A stretch of DNA of 62,563 bases, filler included, from Asterionella formosa (taxonomy: Eukaryota), in NCBI GenBank assembly GCA_002256025.1. It is 5 parts of 5 records of this genome, joined end to end, with 100 filler letters (N's around TTAATTAATTAA, not from the genome) between each part and the next. Parts side by side here need not be neighbours in the genome. Positions count along the whole stretch, not along the records: positions 28,549 to 56,958 come from NKIB01001231.1; 4 more parts are not named here. One strand, given 5' to 3'. Position 1 is the stretch's first letter, and each line of letters starts with the position of its first letter. Shown piece by piece: positions 13,586-61,717 of this stretch. A program made the translations under genes and the position numbers. Under the pieces are notes generated by a model. It ran no database searches, was not told the origin of the DNA, and saw nothing but the letters and a program-made list of their open reading frames with translations.

Positions 13586-14350
13586 CGTCGTCGCCGTGTT
13601 TTGTTGATCCCCCACACAAAACATAATAGTATTTTAGGATTAGCTCACTTTGACAATCTCTATATTTAGCTAACATGGACATGATCGCGCTGGTCTGGCT
13701 CTCTCCTTGCTACATACCTGGTACCAGGTACCGTACGTGATTGACCGCAACATGCTGTATGTCCATGCTGGTATGTATGTACCAGACCGTACATACATAT
13801 TTACCGGTAGTTGTTTGTTGTACATTTGCTATCTGTCCGTCGCACGACAATGTTTGGTAATGGCAATCATCACCAGTATCGGTCATGCTGTTCGTAAATT
13901 TGGACGTGTGCATGTAATTTTAGCACTTGGTATTAGTTTACCTGGCATCATGGAATAGTCTACCGGTACGCATGATACTTACTATACTATATGGCCCATT
14001 AAAAGGTTCCTGCATTTGAACCCCTAGCTCGAGGTAGGGTTTAAAAAATTGAGTCAGACTAATCAAAAACGTACTTTTCACGTATAAAATAGATATATAG
14101 ACATAATGAAGGAGTACATATGTACCTACCGGTACTGGTTGGCTCCATCACATATAATCCTACATATGTATAATTATGTTCCGTACTTTACCTGATGGTT
14201 ACTGCTATTCCACATGATGCATACTTGATGGATTTACCACTGGTATAGTCCCGGTCCAGTTATCATGTACATAGTGAAATGTCGACGGCCACGGGAACAG
14301 CATAATTCAGAGATCGACCGACCTGCAGCGCCGCACGAGTGTTGACGATC

Positions 14351-17300
14351 ATGTCGGGCCCACCGCCACCGCCGCCGCCACCACCACCTCCGCCGCCACC
14401 TCCTCCTCCTCCTGATCGACGAGTTGGGATGCGTCCTCCTCCAGGACTAACCGCTCCTCCAGGAATGGCGCCTCCGGGAATGCACGCTCCTCCCGGAATC
14501 TTTCAGCATTCCTTTCAGCCTCCGCCGGGATTTCCTCCTGGCATGTACACTCAAGGAGGACCTCCTCCACCGCCACCGCCGGGAATGGCTCCCCCCGGAA
14601 TGATGCCGCCTCCGGGAATGATGACTCCTCCAGGAATGATGCCGCCTCCGGGAATGATGCCGCCTCCGGGAATGATGCCGCCTCCGGGCATGTCGTATGC
14701 TCCTCCTGGGATGAGCACACAGAGGCCGCCTCCCATGTCACAGCAACAGGCGACGCCTATGGTAACTGCGGGATTGCAAACTATCTCTCTGGAAGAAAAG
14801 TCAAAGCGATGGGCCAAGCTTCAGAAGAAGAGATATTCACACAAGCGTCTCCAGACATTTAGTGCTCCGCAGAAGGAGCAAATGCCACCGGACTTCTTGC
14901 GAAAGATTCTGCAGGACCATGGCGACATGTCCTCGAAACGCTATCAAACAGAGAAACGTCTATACCTAGGTGCACTTAAGTACGTTCCGCATGCATTGTA
15001 CAAACTATTGGAGCACATTCCTATGCCATGGGAAAACTACAAGGAAGTTCCTGTCTTGTTTCATGTCACTGGGGCCATTTCATTCATTGATTCAACACCC
15101 AAGGTTATTGAACCCATTTACCGCGCTCAATGGGGAACTGCGTGGTTGTTAATGCGTAGGGAGAAGCGTGATCGCAGACATTTCAAGCGCATGCGCTTTC
15201 CTCCATTTGACGACGAAGAACCACCATTGGACTATGCCGACCACTTGTTGAATGTTGAACCTAGTGAAGGGATTCGCTTGGATTTAGAAGATGAACAATA
15301 CGCGCTGATCAAAGATTGGTTCTATGACAACATGCCATTGAGTGATATTAGGCAAACACGCGAAGAACCTCTCTCAAAGCATGTTTTTTGTAATGGACCG
15401 TCTTATCAGACATGGCGCTTGAGTACAGATATCATGGGACAGCTATACGGACTAGCCGAACCCCTCCTCAACGCATTTGATGACAATGTACGATACCTAT
15501 TTGATGTGCCACACTTTTTAACAGCCAAGGCATTGAATGTGGCCATTCCCGGTGGTCCAAGGTTTGAACCACTCTTCAGAGACTTGGATGATGATGAAGA
15601 CTGGAATGATTTTAATGATATCACCAAGTTAATCATTCGATTGCCCATTCGAACGGAATATAAAATTGCGTTTCCTCATGTGTACAACTCCAGACCACGG
15701 AAGGTCAAGCTATCTCCATACCATCATGTTCAGAATAACTTTGTTGGTGACGAAGATGACAATGATGTCATGTGCTGGGAAGCATATCCTTCACAACTCA
15801 ATCCAATTGTGAGAGTGGATAAAAAGGTGTATGTTGGAAAGGACGATGATGAATTCGCAGAAGAACTCCCTATGGTGGGGGAAAGTGAAGATGGTGACGA
15901 CTTCTGGGATGTTGACGAAGCTGATTGGAACGAAGATGACGAAATTACTGTGGTTGAGTCGTTGACTCCATTGTTGGAGGTAGCACCACTGGGAACTAGT
16001 CGCACATCGGCTGGAGTTTCCTTATACTTTGCTCCTCATCCTTTCAATACTCGATCTGGTCGAACGAGGCGAACTATTGATGTGCCCTTGATCGGTCACT
16101 GGGTGCGTGATCGAGTTTCGCGAGATCTTAATTATCCTACAAAGGTTCGTGTTTCATATCAGAAACTTTTGAAAGCTTGGGTGTTGAATCAGCTGCACTC
16201 AAAACCATACAAGAAGAAGTGTAAGAAGGCCCTTTTCAAATCGCTAAAGGGAACCAAATTCTTTCAATGCACTGAACTGGACTGGGTGGAAGTTGGCCTT
16301 CAAGTATGCCGTCAGGGTCATAACATGTTAAACTTGCTAATTCAGCGAAAGCAACTCAAATATTTGCACTTGGATTACAATTTCAACTTGAAGCCAACAA
16401 AGACATTGACAACTAAGGAGCGTAAGAAGTCTCGATTTGGAAACGCTTTCCACTTGGTTAGAGAAATTCTAAGATTGACAAAGTTGATTGTTGACTGCCA
16501 TGTGCAATTTCGTCTCGGAAACGTTGATGCTTATCAATTGGCTGACGGCTTGCAATATACTTTCAATCACGTGGGCCAGTTGACTGGGATGTATCGATAC
16601 AAATATCGCCTCATGCGTCAAATTCGAACCTGCAAGGATTTGAAGCACTTGATCTACTATCGGTTCAATACTGGACCCGTCGGGAAAGGACCAGGAGTGG
16701 GATTCTGGGCACCGAGTTGGCGTGTTTGGATGTTCTTCTTGCGGGGAATTTTACCTCTCTTGGAACGATGGCTTGGGAACTTGTTGGCTCGCCAGTTTGA
16801 AGGCCGTCACTCAAAATCGGTTGCGAAGAATGTTACCAAACAGCGAGTGGAATCTCACTTTGATCTCGAGTTACGAGCTTCTGTAATGCATGACATTTTA
16901 GACATGATGCCAGCAGGCGTAAAGCAAAACAAATCGCGAGTCGTACTCAGTCACTTGAGTGAGGCTTTCAGATGTTGGAAGGCCAACATCCCTTGGAAGG
17001 TGCCAGGCATGCCGGCTCCGATTGAAAATATGATTTTGCGTTATGTTAAATCGAAAGCTGATTGGTGGACGAACATTGCACACTACAACAGAGAGCGTAT
17101 TAAGCGCGGTGGAACAGTCGACAAGACTGTCGTCAAGAAAAATCTTGGTCGTTTAACTCGTCTGTGGCTCAAGGCCGAACAGGAACGTCAGCACAATTAT
17201 CTCAAGGACGGTCCATATGTATCCGCGGAGGAAGCTGTCGCGATTTACACCACAACTGTTCATTGGCTGGAGAGTCGAAAGTTTACTCCAATCCCGTTTC

Positions 17301-20300
17301 CTCCATTGTCGTACAAACACGATACAAAGTTGTTAATCTTGGCACTTGAACGCTTGAAGGAGGGCTTCGGGTTGCAAATCCGCCTGAATAGTGGCATGAG
17401 AGAGGAGTTGGCTTTGATCGAACAAGCTTATGATAATCCTCATGAAGCCTTGAGCCGAATCAAACGACACCTCTTGACTCAACGTACCTTCAAGGAAGTT
17501 GAAATCGAGTTCATGGACATGTATTCTCACCTCTCGCCTGTTTACAATGTGGAACCCTTAGAAAAGATCACTGATGCATATCTCGACCAATACCTTTGGT
17601 ACGAAAGCGACAAGCGCCATCTCTTTCCCAGCTGGATCAAGCCTGCTGATTCAGAACCACCGCCATTGCTTGTTTACAAGTTCTGCCAAGGCATCAACAA
17701 TCTCGAAGATATTTGGGACGCAGACGAGAACGGGGAAAGCGTTGTTCTCCTTCAATCACAATTCGAGAAGATGTATGAGAAGATCGACTTAACATTGTTG
17801 AATCGATTGCTTCGACTTATTGTTGATCATAATATCGCTGATTACATGACCGCAAAGAACAATATAAGCATCTCATTCAAAGACATGATGCACACAAACG
17901 GATATGGATTGATTCGAGGTCTTCAATTTGCGTCGTTTATTGTTCAATACTACGGCCTTGTGCTCGATCTCTTGACTCTTGGTCTCTCCCGTGCTAGCGA
18001 GATTGCCGGACAACCTCAGCGGCCGAACGAATATCTCACTTTTGAAGACATTGAAACAGAAACGAGTCATCCTATCCGGTTATACACACGGTACATGGAC
18101 AAGATTTACATGTTATTTAAGTTTGACGCCATAGAAAGCAAGGATCTCATTCAGAGATATCTTATCGAGCATCCTGACCCTAACAACGAAAATGCCGTCG
18201 GTTACAGAAACAAGAAATGCTGGCCTCGGGATTGTCGAATGCGCCTTTTAAAGCGAGATGTCAACTTGGGTAGAGCTATCTTCTGGGATATCAAGAATCG
18301 CTTACCTCGAAGCATATCTTCTCTTGACTGGGACGATTCATTTGTCAGTGTTTACAGCTCAGACAATCCAAATCTTCTTTTTGACATGAATGGTTTCGAA
18401 ATTCGTATTCAGCCAGTTCGAGCTTCTCGAAAAGCTGTTATTGGTGGTCATTCAGCTGCATCGACACCTGCATATAAAGATGGAGTGTGGAATTTACAGA
18501 ATGAAACCACAAAGGAGATGACGGCACAAGCGCACCTAAGAGTTGACGACGAATCTGTCCTGGCGTTTGATAACCGCATTCGGCAGATCTTGATGAGTAG
18601 TGGAGCCACGACTTTTACTAAAATTGCTAACAAGTGGAACACCGCTCTCATTGGTCTGATGACTTACTACAGAGAAGCAGTTCTGAATACCCAGGAACTT
18701 CTTGATTTATTGGTGAAAAACGAGAACAAGATTCAAACAAGGATCAAAATCGGTTTGAACAGTAAAATGCCGAGTCGTTTTCCTCCAGTTGTCTTCTATT
18801 GCCCAAAGGAGCTTGGAGGCCTCGGCATGCTTTCCATGGGCCACGTCTTGATTCCGCAGAGCGACCTTCGTTATTCTAAGCAAACTGATACTGGAGTCAC
18901 TCACTTTCGCGCAGGCCTCAGTCACGATGCCGATCAGCTTATTCCGAATCTGTTCCGATACATCCAACCTTGGGAAAGCGAGTTTGTTGACTCCCAGAGA
19001 GTATGGGCTGAATATGCGCTCAAACGCCAAGAAGCGAACGCGCAGAACAGAAGATTGACACTCGAGGATCTTGAGGACAGTTGGGACAGAGGTATACCAC
19101 GCATCAATACGTTATTTAGTAAGGATCGGCACACCCTAGCATATGATCGCGGTTGGAGAGTTCGCACAGTTTTCAAGCAATATCAAGTCCTCCGTGTCAA
19201 TCCATTCTGGTGGACGCATCAGCGTCACGACGGGAAGCTTTGGAACCTCAATTCGTACAGAACTGACATGATCCAGGCCCTTGGTGGAGTTGAGGGTATT
19301 CTTGAGCACACTTTGTTCAAGGGAACTTACTTTCCCACGTGGGAAGGTCTTTTCTGGGAGAAGGCATCTGGTTTCGAAGAGAGCATGAAATTCAAAAAGC
19401 TGACGAATGCTCAACGGTCCGGTTTGACCCAGATTCCCAATCGACGTTTTACGCTGTGGTGGTCGCCGACCATCAACCGAGCCAATGTGTATGTCGGCTT
19501 CCAAGTGCAGCTCGACCTCACTGGTATCTTTATGCATGGTAAGATTCCAACCTTGAAGATTTCTTTGATTCAGATCTTTCGAGCCCATTTGTGGCAAAAA
19601 ATTCATGAAAGTATTGTCATGGATATTGTTCAAGTATTTGATCAAGAGCTCGACGCTCTCGAGATCGAGAGTGTGCAAAAAGAAACAATTCACCCGCGTA
19701 AATCGTACAAGATGAACAGCAGCTGTGCTGATTTGGTTCTGTTCGCTGCTTACAAATGGCCAGTTTCAAAGCCTAGCTTGCTTCACGATACCAAGGACGA
19801 CTTTGATGGCGGCAATACTACCAATAAGTTTTGGCTCGATATACAATTGCGTTGGGGTGATTTTGACTCTCATGACATCGAGCGCTACTCCAGGGCTAAG
19901 TTCCTCGACTACACAACCGACAACATGTCAATCTATCCTTCGCCGACTGGATGCCTGCTTGCGTTTGATTTGGCTTATTCCCTATACAGTGGATTTGGAA
20001 ATTTCATTCCCGGAGGCAAGCCCTTGCTGCAGCAGGCCATGGCAAAGATTATCAAAGCCAACCCAGCACTGTATGTTTTACGTGAACGTATTAGAAAGGG
20101 GCTCCAGCTCTATTCTAGTGAGCCCACAGAGCCATATCTCAGCTCACAAAATTACGGTGAATTGTTCAGCAACCAAGTCATTTGGTTCGTGGACGATACA
20201 AATGTGTACAGAGTTACAATTCACAAAACCTTTGAAGGTAACTTGACTACAAAGCCGATCAACGGCGCTATTTTCATTTTCAACCCAAGAACTGGGCAGC

Positions 20301-21892
20301 TTTTTTTGAAGATCATTCACACTAGTGTCTGGGCCGGACAAAAGCGTTTGTCGCAGTTAGCCAAGTGGAAAACAGCTGAAGAGGTTGCTGCACTAATCCG
20401 GTCCCTCCCAGTTGAAGAACAACCAAAACAAATCATTGTCACACGTAAGGGAATGCTTGATCCATTGGAAGTGCATTGTCTTGATTTCCCAAACATTGTC
20501 TTGAAGGGTTCAGAACTCCAATTGCCGTTTCAAGCCGCCCTTAAGGTTGAGAAATTCGGTGACCTAATTCTTCGAGCGACTGAACCTCAAATGGTACTTT
20601 TCAATATATTCGATGACTGGCTAAAGAGTATCTCGTCTTACACTGCCTTCAGTCGGTTGATTTTGATCCTCCGAGGACTTCACGTGAATGTCGATAAGGT
20701 TAAGATGGTTCTGAGACCTGATAAAAGTGTGGTGACTGAGCCACATCACATCTGGCCCACGTTGTCGGATGAGCAGTGGATCAAGATTGAAGTTGCCCTG
20801 AAGGACTTAATTTTGGCTGATTATGGGAAAAAGAACAATGTCAATGTTTCAAGTTTGACTCAGAGCGAGATTCGAGACATTATTCTCGGTATGGAGATTG
20901 CTCCACCATCTGTTCAGAGGCAACAGGTTGCAGAGATCGAGGCTCAAGCTCGCGAGCAGTCTCAACTGACGGCCACGACAACCAAAACCACCAATGTCCA
21001 TGGGGAGCAAATTGTGGTCACTACAACCAGTCAATATGAAGCTGCTACATTTCACAGCAAAACTGATTGGCGTGTGCGCGCTATCAGTGCCACGAATCTG
21101 CATCTTCGTACAAAACACATTTATGTATCGTCAGAAGATATTTCAGAAGACGGCTTGACGTATGTCCTCCCAAAAAATATCCTAAGCAAATTCATAACCA
21201 TTGCTGACTTGCGAACGCAGATTTCAGGCTATCTATACGGTGTTGCACCTGCCGATAATGATCAAGTCCGTGAGGTCCGTTGTATCGTGATGGTCCCTCA
21301 AGTTGGAAATCACCAGACAGTGACACTTCCAAGGAAGCTCCCCGACGATGATTTACTGAAGGACATGGAGCCATTGGGTTGGATCCACACGCAGCCAAAC
21401 GAGTTGATTCAAAACGGTGTTCAAATCTTACCTGCTACTGACGTTTTGACTCATTCGGCAATCATGTCCGAAAACCCCAAAACTTGGCAGGGCAAGGATC
21501 AGATCATCATCACCACGTCATTCACTCAAGGGTCGTGTTCCCTTACGGCGTATCATGTAACGGAAGCGGGCTTCGCTTGGGGAGCGAAGAACCGAAACGT
21601 CGCTGGTGGGGTGGCTAATGCTGAAGGGTATTCGTCTAGTTGTTTCGACAAGGTGCAGATGCTTCTCAGTGACCGATTCAAGGGGTACTTCATGGTCCCC
21701 CAAGGTGGCCTGGGCTGGAATTACAACTTCCAAGGCGTCAAGCATAGTGCTGGAATGGATTATTCTCTGAAAGTGGATATGCCAGAACCATTCTATGCTG
21801 AAGTTCATCGTCCTCAGCACTTTTTGTCCTTTGTCCAGATGGAAGAAGCCGTAGAGACGGAGGATACAGACCTACAGAACTTCCTTGATTAA
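14351..21892 (+). CDS. PRP8: Pre-mRNA-processing-splicing factor 8 (U5 snRNP)
   Basis: Hallmark blocks [51 protein letters not shown], and the C-terminal [12 protein letters not shown]. Intronless, with a Pro-rich N-terminus. Confidence 0.99.
14560..14710 (+). repeat. Coding 18-bp tandem repeat (MMPPPG)n in the PRP8 N-terminus
   Basis: Repeated GGGAATGATGCCGCCTCC-like units. Confidence 0.85.
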
Positions 21893-27732: not shown

Positions 27733-28448
27733 TGTTGAGGGGAACCTTATCGTGAATAAAGGTGAACTACAATATTATGACTATTCTATTGCTGTTCCAA
27801 GTACATCGTTGTCAGCACTCACGCATGTACCTAATCTGGTGGCTGCGCCGGTATGGTTCGTACGGCGCATGTATGGAGCATCATATGCAGATATTAACAC
27901 ACCCTCACCAACAGATGCAGGCAGGAGAACAGGAGCGGGGAGGGAGATGCTATCAGCATCGGAAGCCAAGCACGCATAATAGTTAGGAGGACTAGGGAGG
28001 GATGGAGGGCAATGGAGGTAGTGCGGGCGCATCAACATATGATGGGAAGCGGGATGATGTTTAGTGAAATAATCAGCACGATTCAAACTACCTTTTTTCC
28101 AGTATACAAGAAATTGGCCTTGGCGAACCCGATCGCGTACCCAGTAATAACGCATATCCATAGCTTTGGAACGTTTTTGTTGGACAGTATCATTGGCGAT
28201 GCCACTGGCAGTGCTATTATCGGTGACAATACGGGTAGAAGGTTGGGGATGACCAAGCTCAGCAAGAATGGTGCGAATAGCATATGCCTCTTTGCCATTG
28301 TGGAATAAAGCAGCTAATTCGGCCTCAGCAGCACTGGATACAACCTCCTTAAGAATTTGACAGTGGACGTAAATAGCACCGTTAAGAGGAGGGATGGATG
28401 TAGTGAGGCTAGGTGGAGACACGGGTTTACAGCTGAGAAAGTGAATGC
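27733..28448 (-). mobile_element. 3' end of a Ty1/Copia (CoDi-like) LTR retrotransposon: RNase H, PPT and 167-bp 3' LTR (27733-27899)
   Basis: RNase H motifs SSAAEAE, TDNSTA, KRSKAMDMRYYWVRDR, ADYFTKHH. On the minus strand the purine-rich GGTGAGGGTG abuts TGTTAATATC...CCTCAACA. Truncated by the gap. Confidence 0.95.
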
Positions 28449-28548
28449 NNNNNNNNNNNNNNNNNNNNNNNNNNNNNNNNNNNNNNNNNNNNTTAATTAA
28501 TTAANNNNNNNNNNNNNNNNNNNNNNNNNNNNNNNNNNNNNNNNNNNN
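28449..28548. other. Artificial contig linker (N run with TTAATTAATTAA)
   Basis: The identical 100-nt N/TTAATTAATTAA/N linker occurs four times in the window. Confidence 0.98.
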
Positions 28549-29580: not shown

Positions 29581-29627
29581 GGCATATTCCTTTTGTTCTC
29601 TACCCCTTCCGGTAGTGCATACGACGA

Positions 29628-29724
29628 CCTGCAAGTTGCGATCATTTTGCTTTAACTAACATTTTAATCTGGGATAAAGATAGCTAAATCTTTAGTTTCT
29701 TGAAAATTACCGCAAGTTGTCTGG
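29628..29724. mobile_element. MITE, copy 1 (degenerate)
   Basis: Homologous to 43555-43650 (inverted) and 61636-61717. Confidence 0.8.
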
Positions 29725-31999: not shown

Positions 32000-32844
32000 A
32001 TGGCGAAGCGTATGTCAGCGGAAGAAAAGCGAAAGACAATCCTCGATGTCTACCACAAGACGAAGCAAGTATACACAGAGAAGGAGATTCTCACCCTTTG
32101 TGCCAAAGCTGGAGTCAACGCGAATACGTGAGTATATATCCCGTATAAGGTGTGATTCATCATCGTTGTGCAATCATGATCAGATTTCAGATTTGTCGGC
32201 GGCATCTCGCAATTCCAACTCAACAGTTCCGGATCTGATGGTCCAACTCACTATTGTTCTTTTTTAATATACAGAATTCCGGATATTAACCAATCTCTAA
32301 TCGACGATGGTCTTGTCGATAAGGAAAAGATTGGAGGCTCCAACTACTTCTGGTCCTTTCCCGCCAAGCGCGATCGCATCATGCAACGTCAACATGAAGA
32401 AACAAAATTGACAATTGAGTCCCTCAAGGTCCAGGTGGCAGAAGCAGAAGTAAAGCTCGCGGATGCCAAACGCGGTCGAGAAGATGACGACGGAGAGCGC
32501 ATCAAAAAATTGGCCCGTCTCGCAGACCTTTCCAAGGAAAAAGCGACCATGCAATTGGAACTCGACTCGTTGAAGGAGAACGATCCTCAAGTCTTGGCCG
32601 ACTTTGAGAAAGAACTTCAGCTAGTGATTCAAGCTGCACACCGATGGACGGATAATATTTTTTCTTGCAAGTCATACTTGACCAAAAAGCGCGGGATGGA
32701 TCCGAAAGAGGCCTGCAAATTCCTTCAGATTACGTCAGCTTTTGATTGTAAGTCTTATCTTGGACTACCGACGTTGGTGATATTTGTGTGTTGATGCTCA
32801 CATTGGTGCTTGTTTTAGATCCCGAAGATAAGATCCCAAAGTAA
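32000..32844 (+). CDS. MND1: Meiotic nuclear division protein 1, 3 exons (32000-32127, 32275-32747, 32819-32844)
   Basis: MSAEEKR, SLIDDGLVDKEKIGGSNYFWSFP, ENDP, AAHRWTDNIF. Both GT-AG introns restore the reading frame. Confidence 0.93.
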
Positions 32845-33036: not shown

Positions 33037-33955
33037 AACTTGATCAATGCGCTACAAGTTGAATTATTCTCATGGGTAATGCCTCCCATGTAAGTATCTG
33101 GATGATTATCGGTTACTCCTTACTGGGTAACAGGGGCTGCTTCTCGTGTCCTGTACTTGACAGGAGGTGACTACATGTATATCCTAACATGTACTCCGTG
33201 GACTGTATAACAATATAGACCTATTGATCCCAGTAGACCAATTTTAATACTGTACAATATAATAATGGACTATTGAGAGTATAATAATTTGTTATTGAAA
33301 AAATGCGTCACTGACAATTTTACCAGGCGTAAACAAAACGAGCAAACGCTGTGTACTTAACATGCTGGTGGAATCAAGATTCCTTTGTCCAGCCTCAGTC
33401 ATCATTAACTGCGTAGATGTGGTCAGACACAGCATGGTACTCTCTCTCTGGGCGAATACAATTGCGTCATTTTGCAGCAACTCAAGTGCCGAGCAGCTTA
33501 TTTTTAGGGCGGATAACATAGAAAACACAATTCATTTTTCTACATGAGGGTCGACTTACTCGAAAAAATGCCTTTTTATTAGTTATTCAGATGTGAGTAA
33601 AAACTCGTAATCACTAATTAAAAGGATAGTATGTTTTAAAGCCCATTCGTATTCCCCTATTTCTAAGCAAGTCTTTCATGGTGCTACTACCTGCCAACGA
33701 AACCTGTGCTTCCCTAATTTTGTTTGTGTAGGTAAATCTCCAACCACCTTCCACGAAAGGTGATTGTCTTTGCCGCAGCACTAGGGGAAACTCCGACCAC
33801 CTACTAGGAAGGCGACGAAAGCTGCTTGTAGGGGGCAAATCCACTATTTCTTGCACACCAAGCAAGACCGTGCGGGACTTTAAGGAGGGTGGGAGTCAAG
33901 CCCAACAATCGCTTCTACACAGCGGGGATCAAAGGCAATGAGCTCATCTGACTAA
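33037..33955. ncRNA. Candidate structured noncoding RNA or RNA element, family unidentified
   Basis: Many mutually nested helices (see findings), CpG retained, no credible ORF. Strand and boundaries are uncertain. Confidence 0.45.
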
Positions 33956-34101
33956 GCAATTCCCTTTGAATATATCAACTATATGATCTGAATATACCAC
34001 ATTGATTATTTGATCAGAGTACTATCATGTTTTCATTCCTGGTCATCACTATATTACATGATCCTCATCTTCGCGTAATTATTTGAAATATATGTGATTT
34101 T

Positions 34102-34340
34102 GTTCACGTAACCTTAAATTTCATTCAAGTAATTCTGTATTATAGTTCACGTAACTTGTCAATTCTGTTCACGTAATTCTATAATTTAGTTCACGTTATG
34201 TATTAATTCTGTTAAACGAAATTCTATTATTTTGTTCACTTTATTTTCAAAAGTTCATTCAAATAATTATCTGAAAGGGTCATTCAACTAATAATCAGAA
34301 GGTCGTTCAACTATGTATCGTCTGAAGGGTGTTCCTCAAC
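34102..34340. repeat. Degenerate tandem array with a ~22-bp period and core GTTCACGTAA
   Basis: Cores start at 34102, 34123, 34145, 34167, 34189, 34211 and 34234, then decay. Confidence 0.8.
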
Positions 34341-34399: not shown

Positions 34400-35559
34400 A
34401 GAAATAAATCTTGACATGCAATCAAGGCTGCACTTTCAGAATGGAATCTGCAGTTCTTGAGAAGGCAGGCATTATGGGAAGTCTAAATGAACAATGCAAG
34501 AACAAGAGAAGCGGTTCATTCAGAATGGAACAATTTTTACTCATGAACAGGCATCATTCTTGTGCGACGTTGTTGCAACAGGAATAGACTTCACTGGCAT
34601 CCTCCTTCTTGTCCTTAAAATGCCTTCTTGTTCATTGGCCTGCAAAGATTTGAAAAATCTTTCCATAATTTTAGTTTTCCATGCGTTTTCGGCAAACTCA
34701 AGGAAAATGAAGTTTGCTTTGGCATAATAACTCTACACATTTCACATGCTGACTCTTCACAAAAGTAGCTGCCTTCGGGATTGTTCTCGATGATTTTACG
34801 AAGAAATTTGTTTTCTTCCATGTATGATTTAGAAAAAGATTCAATTTGTTTCTTCAAACTTCGTTCCCAACTCAGTGCATCAACTGCCTTATCCAGCATC
34901 ACATCTCTGTCTGCATTGATCTTTTTGAATTCGAGGTCTTGATCTAGCTCGGACTTTTTCTTGAATATCCTTTCTTTTAGAAATGCAATAGTTTCTCTGC
35001 TTTCATGATGTTCATCTTGATGTTCTGGACGAATAGTGAGACAGCATATTTCTTGGTTTTGCAACTTTTCAACCATTTCTACTTCAGAAGTGATGTCTCC
35101 CAGATTTCCGCCGGTATTTTCATTCAGCGCATGAATTTGTTCATCAAATGAATGAGAATCACTGAGTTCTTCTTCATTATCAGCGATTTCAGGAGAATAA
35201 GGAGCAAAATACGACACTGGATGGAACTGTGACTCTGTAGGAATAGAGTCTTCATCCGTGAAGAACAACTGTTTGGGTTTCCTCTGCTCTTCGAAAGCAA
35301 TCTTTCCTTCTTTTCAATCTCTACCACTATTGTATCAGCAAACTTGCTTCATTATTTTTTCTGGAGTATTATGAATCTGTTCAAAATCATCTGATATTTG
35401 AGTGTATTCAAAGGAATCTTCGATTGATTTCATCACTTTCTTCATTTTCTTTTCCGAAAACGTAAAGTCGTGTAGTGCAAACAATGGAAGTAAGTCACGT
35501 TTCTTGTTTGACTGATCCTTTGCATGAAATTCATGAAATGCCATTTGGAAAGTTGTCAA
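34400..35559 (-). pseudogene. Decayed coiled-coil/acidic ORF, probably transposon-derived
   Basis: ORFs 35335-35559 and 34615-35268 are in the same frame, separated by TGA stops. An apparent frameshift near 34720 is followed by more stops. No recognisable domain. Confidence 0.45.
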
Positions 35560-35945: not shown

Positions 35946-36170
35946 GGGGAATGGCTTAGTGGTTAGCACGACACTCACTGTGGTGGCGGGTTCAATTACT
36001 GCATTCTCCACCTGTCTTTTTCATGTATTAGCTAGGGTTCTGGGGGGTGCAGCTGACGAAAAGACAGGTCCCGTTGTATCGTACGGACGAATAAAACCAG
36101 TACTAATTGTGTCCATCTATTTGGTGGGCCCGAGTGCAATTATTGGATAGCTTTAATGTACTATAAAATT
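35946..36170 (+). mobile_element. tRNA-derived SINE-like element
   Basis: A box TGGCTTAGTGG at 35952, B box GGTTCAATT at about 35989, and acceptor-like pairing GGGGAAT/ATTCTCC. Too short and mispaired for a true tRNA. Followed by a CCTGTCTTTT/AAAAGACAGG hairpin. Confidence 0.55.
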
Positions 36171-36920: not shown

Positions 36921-38545
36921 CATGCCAAATGCAGAAACGAGCGACATGAAAAAGAAATTGTAATCAGAATCATTGTATAACTATAGCTATGTGGACAGTA
37001 GTCTGCTGTTACATCTTTGTATCTCCTTCTATGCTGAATCTCAATAGTAGATGTATTATCATGTGAGAATTGAAAATGTCAACGAGAACAAGTAGAATGT
37101 GTTTGTTTACGGGTTGATTGGCGACATTGTAATGCTGGTGGTTGACGAAACAGATTTACAATGTGCACTGTGTGCAGAACCATTACAAGCTCGAATGATT
37201 TCTTCTCTGTAAACTCTTAATTGAATGATTATGAACAAAGGTTCACTGCACATGACGATTACTCAAAGATATAATGATCACTTGACCAACAATTGAAGAC
37301 GTTGTTATCGCAAACAATCATTCCTCTTGTCATCGCTAGTATTTCGTTGCTGTTGCAAAAATCGGAGTGATGACAGATGGAAATGACGAGCCAAAATACA
37401 TAACTTTAGCTGGTACATTATCCTACCAAGAAATTCGAATACAGGAATCTAATAGAAACAATACATATAATAATTAAATATATGTAGTCAAAAGGGTTAC
37501 TATTTAAATTACAAGAGCATTTATCAAAATTATTAGATGATATAACAAAAAATTATGATCAGATGATCACAATTTTATGATGCATCATGGAAATATGATA
37601 GTTTTATTTGCAGATGTGGTTGTGTGTTGGCTCCTGGACTCTTCCATAACCTTCTCTTGCATGTTTTACTGTCCCCTGCTAGTACCCTTCGAACTTCATC
37701 TTCGTTTTTTCGGCTAAACTGACTTACATAGCTCCCATGGTTGCTAGCCCTTTCTCAGCCTGGTTTTTCTCCTATCACTTACCGCTTCTGTTTGCCCCCC
37801 CCCACATCTCCTCTGTTTCCCTTGTGTATAAAAATAATATTTTTCAGCTTTTACTTCAGAGTGTGCTTGTCTCCACTTATACCCTTGTTTGCTTCAGCCT
37901 TAAGTCTTACCAACAATGGCTAAATTGAGGCAATGCTAGATCTGTTAGCATGTTGAATGTCAATTTAACTGCCACCAGCCAACCAACCGAAATTAAGAAT
38001 GGCTACCACATTTTTGGAAATTGTTGGCTCAGAGGTGTCACACTTGAAGTAATTACCTGCAATCTGAATTTACAGCATGGAGGTCAGCTTTTTAGATGCT
38101 CTGTGTGACATTCTGTATGTTTTTTCGAAAGCAATCTTGTGATTGAGCTTTTTTGGTATGCTGTGATTGCCAGGAGATTCCTTCATGGTGCCATTGCTTT
38201 GCTCATTCATCTTTGTCTTCACCCTTCAGATAAGTTGTTTTCATGGTGCCATTTGCGCCTTCATCTTCGTCTTTTGGATGAGTCTTCTTGTTCAGCTACT
38301 TCAGCTAGATGACAGAGGAAGGGAAAATCCAGAACGCTACTTCCATCACCTGTTCCAATATCAAAATCATCACAGTCATGAAAAAGCTTTAAAATAATTC
38401 ACATCACTTACTGTCACCAAAATGACCAGTATGCATAATATGTACCACTGATTATATCTGCCATACCATGACCAGTACCATTACCAGTACCGGTATGTCT
38501 ACCGGTATACTGGAAATAAATAAAATGTGAGACTTTCCATCAACC

Positions 38546-39535
38546 ATGCTACCGAACAGGTCCCATCAACTTCATTTCATTCCGTCTTCAATAACATTCT
38601 CATCATCAAGATTGCGGGGGCCATTTTTGCTATTCTTGCTTCTGCTACTTATTGTATCGAATCTATCCAGTGGCAGTGCTACTTTCATCGAAACACCCAC
38701 TTTGCTCGAGCGCAGAAAGCAGAACATGCCGCTACAATCCCAAGTTCGCTACCATGACAGTCCCCTGATGAACACAACCGACCGAACGGCTCTCATCATA
38801 CTCAACAGCCCTATCCAAAAGCCGCCTTCCCCTCTCTTTTGGAGACTTTGGGACATGGCTGACTATCGTGTCTGTGCCGATGGAGGGGCGAACCGACTCT
38901 ACGATGCCACTGTTGACATGGCGAACACTTGCAGAATCATCGTACCCACTGTCATTCGAGGTGATTTGGATTCCTTGCGAGACGAAGTGAAAGGCCATTA
39001 CCAAGCAAAAGGATCCACTATAGAGCAAGATCCAGACCAAGAAACGAATGATCTTGACAAATCACTGGCAGTGGTTCTAAGAGATTGGGTCAAGTCGGAC
39101 GAACCACATCGAGTTTGTATTTATGGGGCCTTCGGAGGCCGATTTGACCAAGGAATGGGGTGTATACAAGCATTGTACAAATGGGGAGAGGCTTTTTCGA
39201 ATCGACTTTTTCTCTTTGACGATCACACGTATGCCATTCTGTTGCCACAAGTTGTCCGCAATGAAATAAGAATCCCCTTTTACGGTGACGATCCTGCCAA
39301 TGAACACGACAAGACGCTAGTAGGCGAAGGACCGACGTGCGGACTGATACCAATTGGATGCCGGTGCGAATTCGTAAAGACTACGGGGCTGAAGTGGAAT
39401 TTAGATGGCGCATCCCTGGAGTTTGGAGGGCTAGTCAGCACGTCAAATCGAGTGATGGATGACGTTGTGGTTGTTCAATCATCTCATCCAATAATATTCA
39501 CGGCAGAAGTGAGTTCGGGGGGCGCACGATACTAA
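38546..39535 (+). CDS. TPK1: Thiamine pyrophosphokinase
   Basis: ALIILN, VCADGGANRLYD, GDLDS, DQETNDLDK, GAFGGRFDQ, CGLIPIG, TTGLKWNL, FGGLVSTSN. Start codon uncertain (38546, 38726 or 38768). Confidence 0.95.
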   Translation: MLPNRSHQLHFIPSSITFSSSRLRGPFLLFLLLLLIVSNLSSGSATFIETPTLLERRKQNMPLQSQVRYHDSPLMNTTDRTALIILNSPIQKPPSPLFWRLWDMADYRVCADGGANRLYDATVDMANTCRIIVPTVIRGDLDSLRDEVKGHYQAKGSTIEQDPDQETNDLDKSLAVVLRDWVKSDEPHRVCIYGAFGGRFDQGMGCIQALYKWGEAFSNRLFLFDDHTYAILLPQVVRNEIRIPFYGDDPANEHDKTLVGEGPTCGLIPIGCRCEFVKTTGLKWNLDGASLEFGGLVSTSNRVMDDVVVVQSSHPIIFTAEVSSGGARY

Positions 39536-39640: not shown

Positions 39641-41506
39641 TTAACGAACCGTAGCCGTCCCAGGGCATTGAAAGTCGCCGATCAAGAAGTTCTCGCGTCG
39701 TTTGGACTGAGGAGGTGGTCCGAATATATCCCAAAATCGGAGTGTCTCGTCTGCGCCGACCGAAACCACCGAGCGGCCATCCGGACTCATTTCCATGTTC
39801 AACACACGAGCAGTGTGAGACTTAAACTCTTGAACCTTAGTCATAGTTGGGTATTTCCAGAGAATTAGCTGATTCTCACTAAATCCGTGAGATGAGCAGA
39901 GCTCACGCTGATGCTTGGACCAAATGATGGAGCAAACTTGTGACCCAGTATCAATCGAGTTGGTCATGGTACCAGCGACTGTATTCCAAAATTTGATGGT
40001 TCGATCAGCTGTGCCACCTCCACTTGCCAAAAGGCTCCGGTTGAAGGGACACCAATCTAATGCCTTCACAGCTGCCTTGTGCTGTGTCAGGAGAAAACGA
40101 GGCGCCACAACGTTGGCATCTTGCGAAGCTCGATCACGACCATTGTTTCGTCTCGACATTGCAGCGTCCCAAATGCAAAGGTAATTCTCATTTCCACCAC
40201 TGGCAAGTGCATGGCCATCATCGTTCCACTTCAAACCACAAATTTCTTGCCGATGGCCCTTGTATTGTCCGACGACATGGCTTCCGACCCTTACGTCATG
40301 TTGCAAAATTTGAGAATCGCGGCCACCAGATGTCAACCAATTCTTGCTGGGATTCCAAGTCATAGAACTCACTCGGTTTGAATGTCCTTGAAGTTTTCGG
40401 ACCATTTTTTGCTCTTGTGTGTCCCAAAGTTGGATGACGTTGCTGCTTGTTCCAATTGCCAAGTACTTTGTGTTTCCAGGAATTGTCGACCACGACACGC
40501 TTGATACATAGTCATTGGCACCATTTAAGGTTACTACATGGCCAATTTCTCCAGATATAGCATTCCAAAGGTATACACTCGGTCCCATTGCAACAGCGAG
40601 AATGTTGTCTTTGCTCCATGAGATGAGATTTAGATAGTAGTCGTCAACAATATCAGGGGCATCCAGAACTTTTGTGGGTTTCTCAGAAATTTTTCGCTTC
40701 GATGCTATTGAACTGGTTGGCTTGTCGGCATATTCTGATTCTCCATTGCAGGTTGCTGCTCTCTGGAGTACTTGAAGGTGATTATGTTGGAACGGATCAA
40801 CACGTGGTCGGACCGATCGAGATTCGTCGTGGCAGTTAAATCGAAAGGTTCTCTTAGGTCCTCTCAGGCTTCTTTCAAAAGGAGCAAAACCCTGCAAAGA
40901 ACCATCGACTTCGTCTTCTAGCTCAGGAATGGATGCATATGCAATATGGGAAAGGTCTTTGCGGCATTGTGCCCTCTGAATTTCGGACTTGAGGTTAGGT
41001 GAAATGATACTCAAGAGGGATCCACCAACGTTGATGTTTTGAGAAGTTGACAAGGTATCTGGATTCTTCTCTGGTAATGCTACATCTTCAAAATATTCGA
41101 GAGGAAGATCGTGGAGAGCGGCACCCATTGCCCGACGAAATAACGCTTGATCAGCAGTTTCGATGACAGGTGAAGCAGGTGGCGATTCAATTTGACTGGA
41201 AGGTGGTGTGAGTCCCATACGCAGCGATTTTTGGCGCTCAAGAACTTTTGGTGTAAGCTCGATTCTTCTCCTTTCAGCCACTTGAATGTTCGCGCTGATT
41301 AGGTTTACATCCATGCTGGACCGAGAAGGTATGTACCGATCGGAGAAAGAAGGCGAAGCTGTTGATCGCTTATTGCTCGAAGAAGCATTTCCATTCAGAT
41401 TCTTTTTTGGTGTTGATGTCAAGGGCAAGTCCAAGCCGCGACGACTTGGTGTATGACATAATGATACAGATCCTCGTCGTCTGTTTGGTGTTGATGGTGT
41501 CGTCAT
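39641..41506 (-). CDS. CDC20: APC/C activator CDC20 (fizzy family)
   Basis: C-box DRYIPSR, VLDAPDIVDDYYLNL, WD40 repeats, LASGGGTADR, ELCSSHGFSENQL, and a C-terminal VR (IR-tail variant). Confidence 0.95.
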   Translation of the reverse strand: MTTPSTPNRRRGSVSLCHTPSRRGLDLPLTSTPKKNLNGNASSSNKRSTASPSFSDRYIPSRSSMDVNLISANIQVAERRRIELTPKVLERQKSLRMGLTPPSSQIESPPASPVIETADQALFRRAMGAALHDLPLEYFEDVALPEKNPDTLSTSQNINVGGSLLSIISPNLKSEIQRAQCRKDLSHIAYASIPELEDEVDGSLQGFAPFERSLRGPKRTFRFNCHDESRSVRPRVDPFQHNHLQVLQRAATCNGESEYADKPTSSIASKRKISEKPTKVLDAPDIVDDYYLNLISWSKDNILAVAMGPSVYLWNAISGEIGHVVTLNGANDYVSSVSWSTIPGNTKYLAIGTSSNVIQLWDTQEQKMVRKLQGHSNRVSSMTWNPSKNWLTSGGRDSQILQHDVRVGSHVVGQYKGHRQEICGLKWNDDGHALASGGNENYLCIWDAAMSRRNNGRDRASQDANVVAPRFLLTQHKAAVKALDWCPFNRSLLASGGGTADRTIKFWNTVAGTMTNSIDTGSQVCSIIWSKHQRELCSSHGFSENQLILWKYPTMTKVQEFKSHTARVLNMEMSPDGRSVVSVGADETLRFWDIFGPPPQSKRRENFLIGDFQCPGTATVR

Positions 41507-41665
41507 GGTGTAATAGGTGATGAGATGTATAAATGTGTTTTACTTTGTGTTTTGGCGAAATGTGAGTTACCGGTATATGTAGATGTGCGAGCGTGTGAAA
41601 GATATTGACACCTCGCTCGAACTCCTCAGGTACTCTCAAGACACGATGGGCGATGCATGAGGCTC

Positions 41666-43554: not shown

Positions 43555-43650
43555 CCTGCAAGTTGCAGTAATTTTGCTGTAACTAAAGATTTAGCTTTCT
43601 TTATCCGAGATTAAAATGTTAGTTTAAGCAAAATGACCGCAACTTGCTGG
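43555..43650. mobile_element. MITE, copy 2 (96 bp, 24-bp TIRs)
   Basis: CCTGCAAGTTGCAGTAATTTTGCT ... AGCAAAATGACCGCAACTTGCTGG, flanked by TA and CA. Confidence 0.85.
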
Positions 43651-56242: not shown

Positions 56243-56958
56243 TGTTGAGGGGAACCTTATCGTGAATAAAGGTGAACTACAATATTATGACTATTCTATT
56301 GCTGTTCCAAGTACATCGTTGTCAGCACTCACGCATGTACCTAATCTGGTGGCTGCGCCGGTATGGTTCGTACGGCGCATGTATGGAGCATCATATGCAG
56401 ATATTAACACACCCTCACCAACAGATGCAGGCAGAAGAACAGGAGCGGGGATGGAGATGAGATCAGCATCGGAAGCCAAGCACGCATAATAGTTAGGAGG
56501 ACTAGGGAGGGATGGAGGGCAATGGAGATAGTGCGGGCGCATCAACATATGATGGGAAGCGGGATGATGTTTAGTGAAATAATCAGCACGATTCAAACTA
56601 CCTTTTTTCCAGTATACAAGAAATTGGCCTTGGCGAACCCGATCGCGTACCCAGTAATAACGCATATCCATAGCTTTGGAATGTTTTTGTCGGACAGTAT
56701 CATTGGCGATGCCACTGGCAGTGCTATTATCGGTGACAATACGGGTAGAAGGTTGGGGATGACCAAGCTCAGCAAGAATGGTGCGAATAGCATATGCCTC
56801 TTTGCCATTGTGGAATAAAGCAGCTAATTCGGCCTCAGCAGCACTTGATACAACCTCCTTAAGAATTTGACAGTGGACGTAAATAGCACCGTTAAGAGGA
56901 GGGATGGATGTAGTGAGGCTAGGTGGAGACACGGGTTTACAGCTGAGAAAGTGAATGC
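56243..56958 (-). mobile_element. Second copy of the Copia 3' end (RNase H, PPT, LTR 56243-56409)
   Basis: LTR appears identical to 27733-27899. About 8 substitutions in the pol portion and different flanking DNA. Confidence 0.95.
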
Positions 56959-57058
56959 NNNNNNNNNNNNNNNNNNNNNNNNNNNNNNNNNNNNNNNNNN
57001 NNTTAATTAATTAANNNNNNNNNNNNNNNNNNNNNNNNNNNNNNNNNNNNNNNNNNNN
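56959..57058. other. Artificial contig linker
   Basis: N run with TTAATTAATTAA. Confidence 0.98.
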
Positions 57059-58827: not shown

Positions 58828-58927
58828 NNNNNNNNNNNNNNNNNNNNNNNNNNNNNNNNNNNNNNNNNNNNTTAATTAATTAANNNNNNNNNNNNNNNNN
58901 NNNNNNNNNNNNNNNNNNNNNNNNNNN
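58828..58927. other. Artificial contig linker
   Basis: N run with TTAATTAATTAA. Confidence 0.98.
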
Positions 58928-60696: not shown

Positions 60697-60796
60697 NNNN
60701 NNNNNNNNNNNNNNNNNNNNNNNNNNNNNNNNNNNNNNNNTTAATTAATTAANNNNNNNNNNNNNNNNNNNNNNNNNNNNNNNNNNNNNNNNNNNN
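60697..60796. other. Artificial contig linker
   Basis: N run with TTAATTAATTAA. Confidence 0.98.
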
Positions 60797-61635: not shown

Positions 61636-61717
61636 CCAGCAAGTTGCGGTCATTTTGCTTAAACTAACATTTTAATATCGGATAAAGATAGCTAAAGTTT
61701 TAGTTTCAGCTTGCAGG
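61636..61717. mobile_element. MITE, copy 3 (TA target duplication; deletion in the right TIR)
   Basis: TA|CCAGCAAGTTGCGGTCATTTTGCT...CTTGCAGG|TA. Confidence 0.85.

Follow-up and report, generated by a model that had tools for sequence, protein, structure and literature searches.

A candidate structured RNA beside Mnd1 in Asterionella formosa is very likely a decayed copy of a tRNA-derived SINE

The window analysed here, a stretch of 62,563 nucleotides from Asterionella formosa, is eukaryotic and gene-dense. It contains long unbroken reading frames, among them those for Prp8, Mnd1, thiamin pyrophosphokinase and a Cdc20-type WD40 protein (Table 1). Among named sequences, the thiamin pyrophosphokinase is closest to those of diatoms (Ditylum brightwellii, 55% identity; an Attheya transcriptome entry, 55%; Seminavis robusta, 49%), which makes a diatom the probable source, and unnamed environmental sequences match it at up to 74-84%. 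Linkers of the form N44-TTAATTAATTAA-N44 at 28449-28548, 56959-57058, 58828-58927 and 60697-60796 mark the window as separate contigs chained together. Two of the contig ends carry the same sequence, with 56243-56958 and 27733-28448 being 98.9% identical. The repeat copy that is the subject of this report is located in the piece spanning 28549-56958, within the 1.8 kb that separate Mnd1 from an unassigned reading frame at 34615-35313. The only reading frame that runs across this copy encodes 83 amino acids from a TTG start.

Table 1. Genes, repeats and parts of the repeat copy in the window. L002, L012, L013 and L015 are metagenome loci that carry further copies of the repeat.
Feature	Position	Strand	Remarks
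Prp8	14306-21892		
Mnd1	32180-32794		
X module	33443-33622		Different repeat adjoining the 3' end of the element; ~72% alike to L015 276-449
Degenerate copy, very likely of a SINE, 345 nt	33621-33965	-	5' end ~33965, 3' tail ~33621; homology to L013, L002, L012 and L015
Local hairpin CACCTT/AAGGTG	33745-33762	-	Kept in 3/3 covering copies; loop varies
Local hairpin TCTTGC/GCAAGA	33849-33867	-	Kept in 5/5 copies; most conserved stretch of the family; deepest contig bins
P4-like AAAGUCCC	33874-33881	-	Private to the window copy
Second B-box-like, T-arm-like segment	33892-33902	-	GGCTTGACTCC against family GGTTCGACTCC; two changes
Deletion site	33923-33924	-	~25-30 nt missing relative to other copies; alignment gap at columns ~389-418, placement uncertain
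A box remnant	33949-33959	-	TTGCTTAGTCA on the minus strand against TGGCTTAGTGG in better copies
Thiamin pyrophosphokinase	38531-39535		
Cdc20-type WD40 protein	39641-41539		

Several other repeated or tRNA-like sequences are found around the copy. The segment 33980-34090 beside it has a very high summed depth. Next to this segment are two tandem arrays, one at 34097-34239 whose 22/44-nt unit includes TTCACGTAA (22 nt repeated about 6.5 times) and one at 34247-34313 with a 25-nt unit; the array region also has a very high summed depth in the algal-culture metagenome run X1. A tRNA-like unit on the plus strand at 35946-36017, 2 kb from the copy, begins with letters (GGGAATGGCTTAGTGGTT) that it has in common with the head of the repeat, has acceptor-like ends that pair, and is followed by a T5 run. 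It matches the Rfam tRNA model weakly along its full length (1-71 of 71; 14.7 bits, E 0.95, gathering score 29), and ARAGORN reports no tRNA there. Possible identities for this unit are a tRNA pseudogene, a short related SINE, and a relative of the gene from which the head of the repeat derives. Finally, a short element of about 100-110 nt is present in three copies that are 90-93% alike, at 29627-29699, 43576-43650 (minus strand) and 61636-61710. Its ends look by eye like terminal inverted repeats (GCAAGTTGCGGTCATTTTGC ... GCAAAATTACTGCAACTTGC), and it is probably a MITE.

A sequence-only reading of the region had described one multi-branched structured RNA and named a search for homologues among its checks. 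Homologues exist, and they settle the identity of the stretch in favor of a SINE copy. Seventeen runs from 13 studies match in a public-run index, 16 of them labelled as algal, aquatic, lake, river or freshwater metagenomes and one unlabelled. No RNA run is among them, and next to none of the sequence words occur in a poly(A) RNA run made from the sample that gave X1. Four of the runs (X1, X3, X7 and X10) were aligned on the 901-base stretch 33300-34200 at a likeness of at least 80%. X1 yields 3590 contigs on this stretch, of which 85 have a likeness of at least 99%, 434 of 95-99%, 1509 of 90-95%, and 1562 of less than 90%. At the single place 33861, up to 118 distinct contigs in X1 carry an alternative letter. 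Depths are 713-905 for the five diverged pieces listed for this run and 825-930 for those identical to the window, a similarity suggesting that most of the diverged pieces are paralogues within one genome. In the core of the copy (33703-33888), the summed depth in X1 is several hundred times the single-copy depth; summed depth is not copy number, and the figure of hundreds of copies is therefore given as an estimate. The same pattern is seen at lower depth in X3, X7 and X10, which come from other studies.

Individual copies were recovered from metagenome contigs by a scan for a 19-letter word taken from the best-conserved part of the family, which returned 20 loci. Four of these (L002, L012, L013 and L015) are true copies, and the other 16 were dropped, 15 of them matching just 22-27 nt around the word and one (L010) having no BLAST hit. 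The window copy is 84.1% identical to L013 over 296 nt, 77.3% to L002 over 309 nt, 86.5% to L012 over 133 nt, and 87.5% to L015 over 80 nt, while L012 is 94.6% identical to L013 over 168 nt and 92.4% to L015 over 157 nt. The copies differ by indels of 1-4 nt and by larger ones. Two of these four outside copies are partial, with L012 and L015 cut by contig ends; positions 1-27 of L012 resemble a sequencing-library adapter, which we take not to be genomic DNA, so that this copy is cut artificially. Within the 62.5-kb window, neither a BLASTN self-search nor an nhmmer profile finds a second copy, and two patterns scanned against viral contigs gave 0 matches each.

The flanks of the four copies are unrelated to one another and to the window, with the exception of the X module in L015. 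There it lies about 115 nt beyond the 5' end of the element, on the opposite side from its position in the window. Loose ends at 33537 in three runs indicate that copies of the X module continue differently elsewhere. The spacer at 151-300 of L015 aligns to window positions 33956-34110 with a score of 21, compared with a mean of 17.2 and a maximum of 35 in shuffles, and the idea of a module common to the two was rejected.

The boundaries of the element are clearest in L002, where the same 14 nt stand in direct orientation on both sides of a 379-nt copy (1283-1661), at 1269-82 and 1662-75, without a mismatch and precisely where homology stops. The chance expectation for such a 14-nt repeat in 611 nt is about 0.0007, and this repeat is a target-site duplication. 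It is found in one of the three testable full-length copies, namely L002 and neither the window copy nor L013, in both of which inspection by eye gave no convincing duplication. No terminal inverted repeats join the ends of the element in the three full-length copies (window, L002 and L013). At 345-379 nt, the unit is short and non-coding, as tRNA-derived SINEs are, which stay below about 600 nt. Better-preserved copies start with (G/A)AGGGAATGGCTTAGTGG, and four copies show a sharp 5' end. The AT-rich 3' tail carries a shared AAAACA motif / CGAATGGGCTATAAAACA, beyond which both sequence and length vary. When compared with the end of the tRNA-like element at 35946-36112, the family tail scores 18, which is not above shuffles (14.2 +/- 2.2, maximum 24).

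Near its 5' end the family carries a tRNA-like head with promoter boxes. The Pol III consensus is TRGCNNAGTGG for the A box and GGTTCGANNCC for the B box, and the two are separated in tRNA genes by the same 43 nt that separate the strict A box of L012, TGGCTTAGTGG, from its strict B box, GGTTCGATTCC. A second strict B box lies 81 nt from the A box in this copy. L015 shares this strict A box; its second B box is also strict, and its first is one letter off. L013 has a strict second B box, and L002 lacks a strict match to either box. On both strands of all 20 loci, strict A and B box matches occur inside these copies only. The head is followed by a T run in all four copies outside the window (T7 in L012, T8 in L015, T5 in L002 and T4 in L013). 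Past this run lies a second T-arm-like segment, which contains the strict B box GGTTCGACTCC in L012, L013 and L015, and then the body, which measures about 270 nt and contains local hairpins. The two T-arm-like segments of L012 and L013 form a hairpin that has the T run in its loop or next to it. The 104-nt head aligns weakly from end to end with a tRNA-clan model in Infernal (tRNA-Sec, 15.5 bits, E 0.72, gathering score 47), and ARAGORN finds no tRNA in the window or the four loci. Decay of the head to this degree is usual for SINEs.

The window copy, whose ends were placed by alignment to the duplication-bounded copy in L002, is more eroded. Its first B box was lost in the deletion near 33923/33924, where other letters stand in place of the adjoining T run. 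It contains no strict A or B box; a tRNA-like head with boxes is found in the family and not in this copy. At many places the window letter is the minority letter among related contigs, and the window copy has therefore drifted from the family. Decay of the A box and loss of the first B box make it most likely inert.

A defined 5' end, a variable 3' tail, promoter boxes, a target-site duplication and dispersed, decaying copies together make it very likely that the minus strand of 33621-33965 carries a dead and diverged copy of a tRNA-derived SINE, a non-autonomous retroposon about 380 nt long. The minus strand is the sense strand, since the A and B boxes read correctly there, and the sharp 5' end and variable 3' tail fit this orientation. 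The same boxes overturn the preference for the plus strand that had been drawn from GNRA loops. An intact member would consist of a tRNA-like head with an internal Pol III promoter, a T4-T8 run, a second T-arm-like segment, the body and the AT-rich tail, in that order. Transcription by Pol III would start from the head, and the reverse transcriptase of a partner LINE, which may recognize the 3' part of the SINE, would copy the RNA into new sites by target-primed reverse transcription. New insertions would be left with target-site duplications.

Some of the evidence counts against the SINE reading. A T run placed directly after the head should stop Pol III before it reaches the body; it is a matter of speculation that the hairpin around the run might permit read-through. 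The ARAGORN null result, tRNA-clan scores far below the gathering score, the boxless L002 copy, and the presence of the duplication in just one of three copies weigh on the same side.

Comparison with known systems places the family close to tRNA-derived SINEs such as those of Aspergillus fumigatus. Like them, it is short, non-coding, interspersed and multi-copy, with a 5' tRNA-like head, Pol III A and B boxes at tRNA spacing and a unique body; its copies decay by substitution and deletion, and L002 has a short flanking target duplication of 14 nt. The accessible part of the A. fumigatus study gives 4-14 bp for the target-site duplications of its tRNA-related SINE families (PMC5063351). Unlike tRNA-derived SINEs, the present family has a T4-T8 run directly behind the tRNA-like head, a second B-box-like segment together with a body segment resembling it, a variable AT-rich tail without poly(A), and a head too degenerate for ARAGORN or Rfam thresholds.

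In diatoms, SINEs have been reported by repeat annotation in Phaeodactylum tricornutum, Cyclotella cryptica and Skeletonema costatum, and their roles are described as not understood in the available portions of these reports (PMC7466962, PMC8147415). The host group is the same as that of the present family, and what those portions contain is class-level annotation, without a consensus, head type or duplication. A literature search of incomplete coverage, made outside repeat databases and paper supplements, found no tRNA-derived SINE family described in diatoms. As far as the accessible parts of these sources go, the family may be new as a described family, yet it is an ordinary kind of element.

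The fold that first drew attention to the region does not belong to the family. Its five long-range complementary pairs are present as sequence (33587-93/33945-51, 33640-47/33937-44, 33653-57/33924-28, 33725-31/33915-21 and 33762-67/33905-10), as are the local hairpins CACCTT/AAGGTG, TCTTGC/GCAAGA and CCTAC/GTAGG. Folding energies are unremarkable on both strands, which is part of what the sequence-only reading had listed as refuting it. The plus strand folds at -102.4 kcal/mol against -98.95 +/- 6.4 in 100 dinucleotide shuffles (z -0.54), with 28 of the 100 folding at least as well, and the minus strand at -106.6 against -105.19 +/- 4.84 (z -0.29), a value equalled or bettered by 39 of 100 shuffles. 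On an alignment with the four related copies, the 33 proposed pairs give 61.2% paired cells compared with 59.1% in shuffles, 84 of 500 of which reach 61.2%, and a single pair shows change on both sides.

None of the five long-range helices is kept among the related copies. The outermost (33587-93/33945-51) joins the SINE head to the X module, a different repeat, and its X-module arm differs in L015. The helix 33725-31/33915-21 reads AGCGTAG/CTCAAAA in L013 and AGCATAG/CTCCAAA in L002, the helix 33653-57/33924-28 straddles the deletion private to the window copy, and pairs of both 33640-47/33937-44 and 33762-67/33905-10 are lost in other copies. The long-range fold is therefore not real, since it is no better than shuffles and its helices are broken in other copies; the apparent multi-branched structure is chance complementarity within one old copy and a neighboring repeat. 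Nor are the two GAAA-capped stems features of the family: most related contigs differ at 33815, 33817 and 33818, and the ACGAAA loop is CACAAG in three of the four copies, the fourth (L015) not covering this stretch.

Two further properties used to argue for a folded RNA hold in part. The element is indeed richer in G+C than its flanks (0.478 versus 0.388 and 0.324), whereas its CpGs, described as retained, have a lower observed/expected ratio (0.56 versus 0.77 and 0.72). The T6 run at 33563-68, likened to a Pol III terminator, is present but lies about 53 nt past the 3' end of the element, within the X module. Among the three kinds of RNA that had been offered, the mobile-element RNA stands, in the form of a multi-copy, interspersed tRNA-derived SINE, while the housekeeping RNA and the ribozyme do not.

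It is improbable that the copy is a fragment of a larger transposable element, such as an LTR element, a DNA transposon or a composite repeat, instead of a self-contained SINE. The intergenic region is a mosaic of repeats, in which 33443-33622, 33982-34074 and 34168-34198 also have very high summed depth, and the X module adjoins the element in both the window and L015. However, the X module stands on opposite sides of the element in these two places, and L002, L012 and L013 share nothing with the window beyond the unit itself. The 379-nt unit alone is bounded by the exact duplication in L002, and the terminal inverted repeats of a MITE or DNA transposon are absent from all three full-length copies.

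There is a still slimmer chance that the copies represent a multi-copy family of functional structured RNAs, such as a ribozyme-bearing retroelement or dispersed small-RNA genes, in which the conserved local hairpins have a function. Two local hairpins are intact in all covering copies, and RNAalifold on the three full-length copies predicts local helices with 79 pairs, five of which show change on both sides. However, the covariation term contributes just -2.52 of -66.69 kcal/mol, and three sequences are too few for claiming covariation or selection on structure. No ribozyme or other Rfam family is matched in the window, which gives 0 matches at the gathering score, or in the four related loci (0 matches at E 1). 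Hairpins are common in SINE bodies, and the indels, large head deletion and 5-23% divergence are like those of decaying repeats. A SINE also accounts for the duplication and the promoter boxes.

The proposal of a divergent RNase P/MRP RNA gene on the minus strand took AAAGUCCC and GGGCUUU as the P4 helix, with a closing P1 helix and a T6 terminator. In RNase P/MRP RNA, the P4 helix contains a bulged U; both motifs are present in the window copy and could pair in that way, the length of about 390 nt is similar, and the T6 run lies downstream on the minus strand. However, chance alone would place any 8-mer about twice in 62.5 kb when both strands are counted, and the pairing is private to the window copy. 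In X1, a T>G change accounts for the majority of depth at both 33879 (145,676/206,691) and 33880 (201,229/206,691), and the family G G at 33879-80 turns AAAGUCCC into ACCGUCCC; the four outside copies have ACGG or ATGG at this site, without AAAG. Over 33300-34200, on both strands and at E <=10, Rfam returns no RNase P, MRP, intron or ribozyme model. Its two matches, Avalong_thermometer (E 0.67; 19 bits, where the gathering score is 154) and MIR2655 (E 4.4), are taken as chance. With no covariance-model match, with the AAAGUCCC motif altered in most related contigs and absent from L002, L012, L013 and L015, with many interspersed copies, and with a P1 arm and T6 run that belong to a different repeat, so that the closing helix spans two unrelated repeats, this proposal has almost nothing left to recommend it and was dropped.

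Recognizing the stretch as a probable SINE copy removes a false lead: the stretch is neither the missing RNase P/MRP RNA nor a ribozyme, and it represents no new class of structured RNA. It also puts on record a tRNA-derived SINE family whose ends are defined and which has promoter boxes and one target-site duplication, in a group whose SINEs are otherwise class-level annotations in the accessible parts of the literature. We tentatively suggest, as a possibility held with less than even confidence, that this is an undescribed SINE family, widespread in freshwater metagenomes, in which the head is followed by a terminator-like T run set in a hairpin between T-arm-like segments and then by a structured body some 270 nt long. 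Were this the case, a full-length transcript would require another polymerase or read-through by Pol III, perhaps with the T run sequestered in the hairpin, and diatoms would gain a first curated tRNA-SINE that could serve as an insertion marker.
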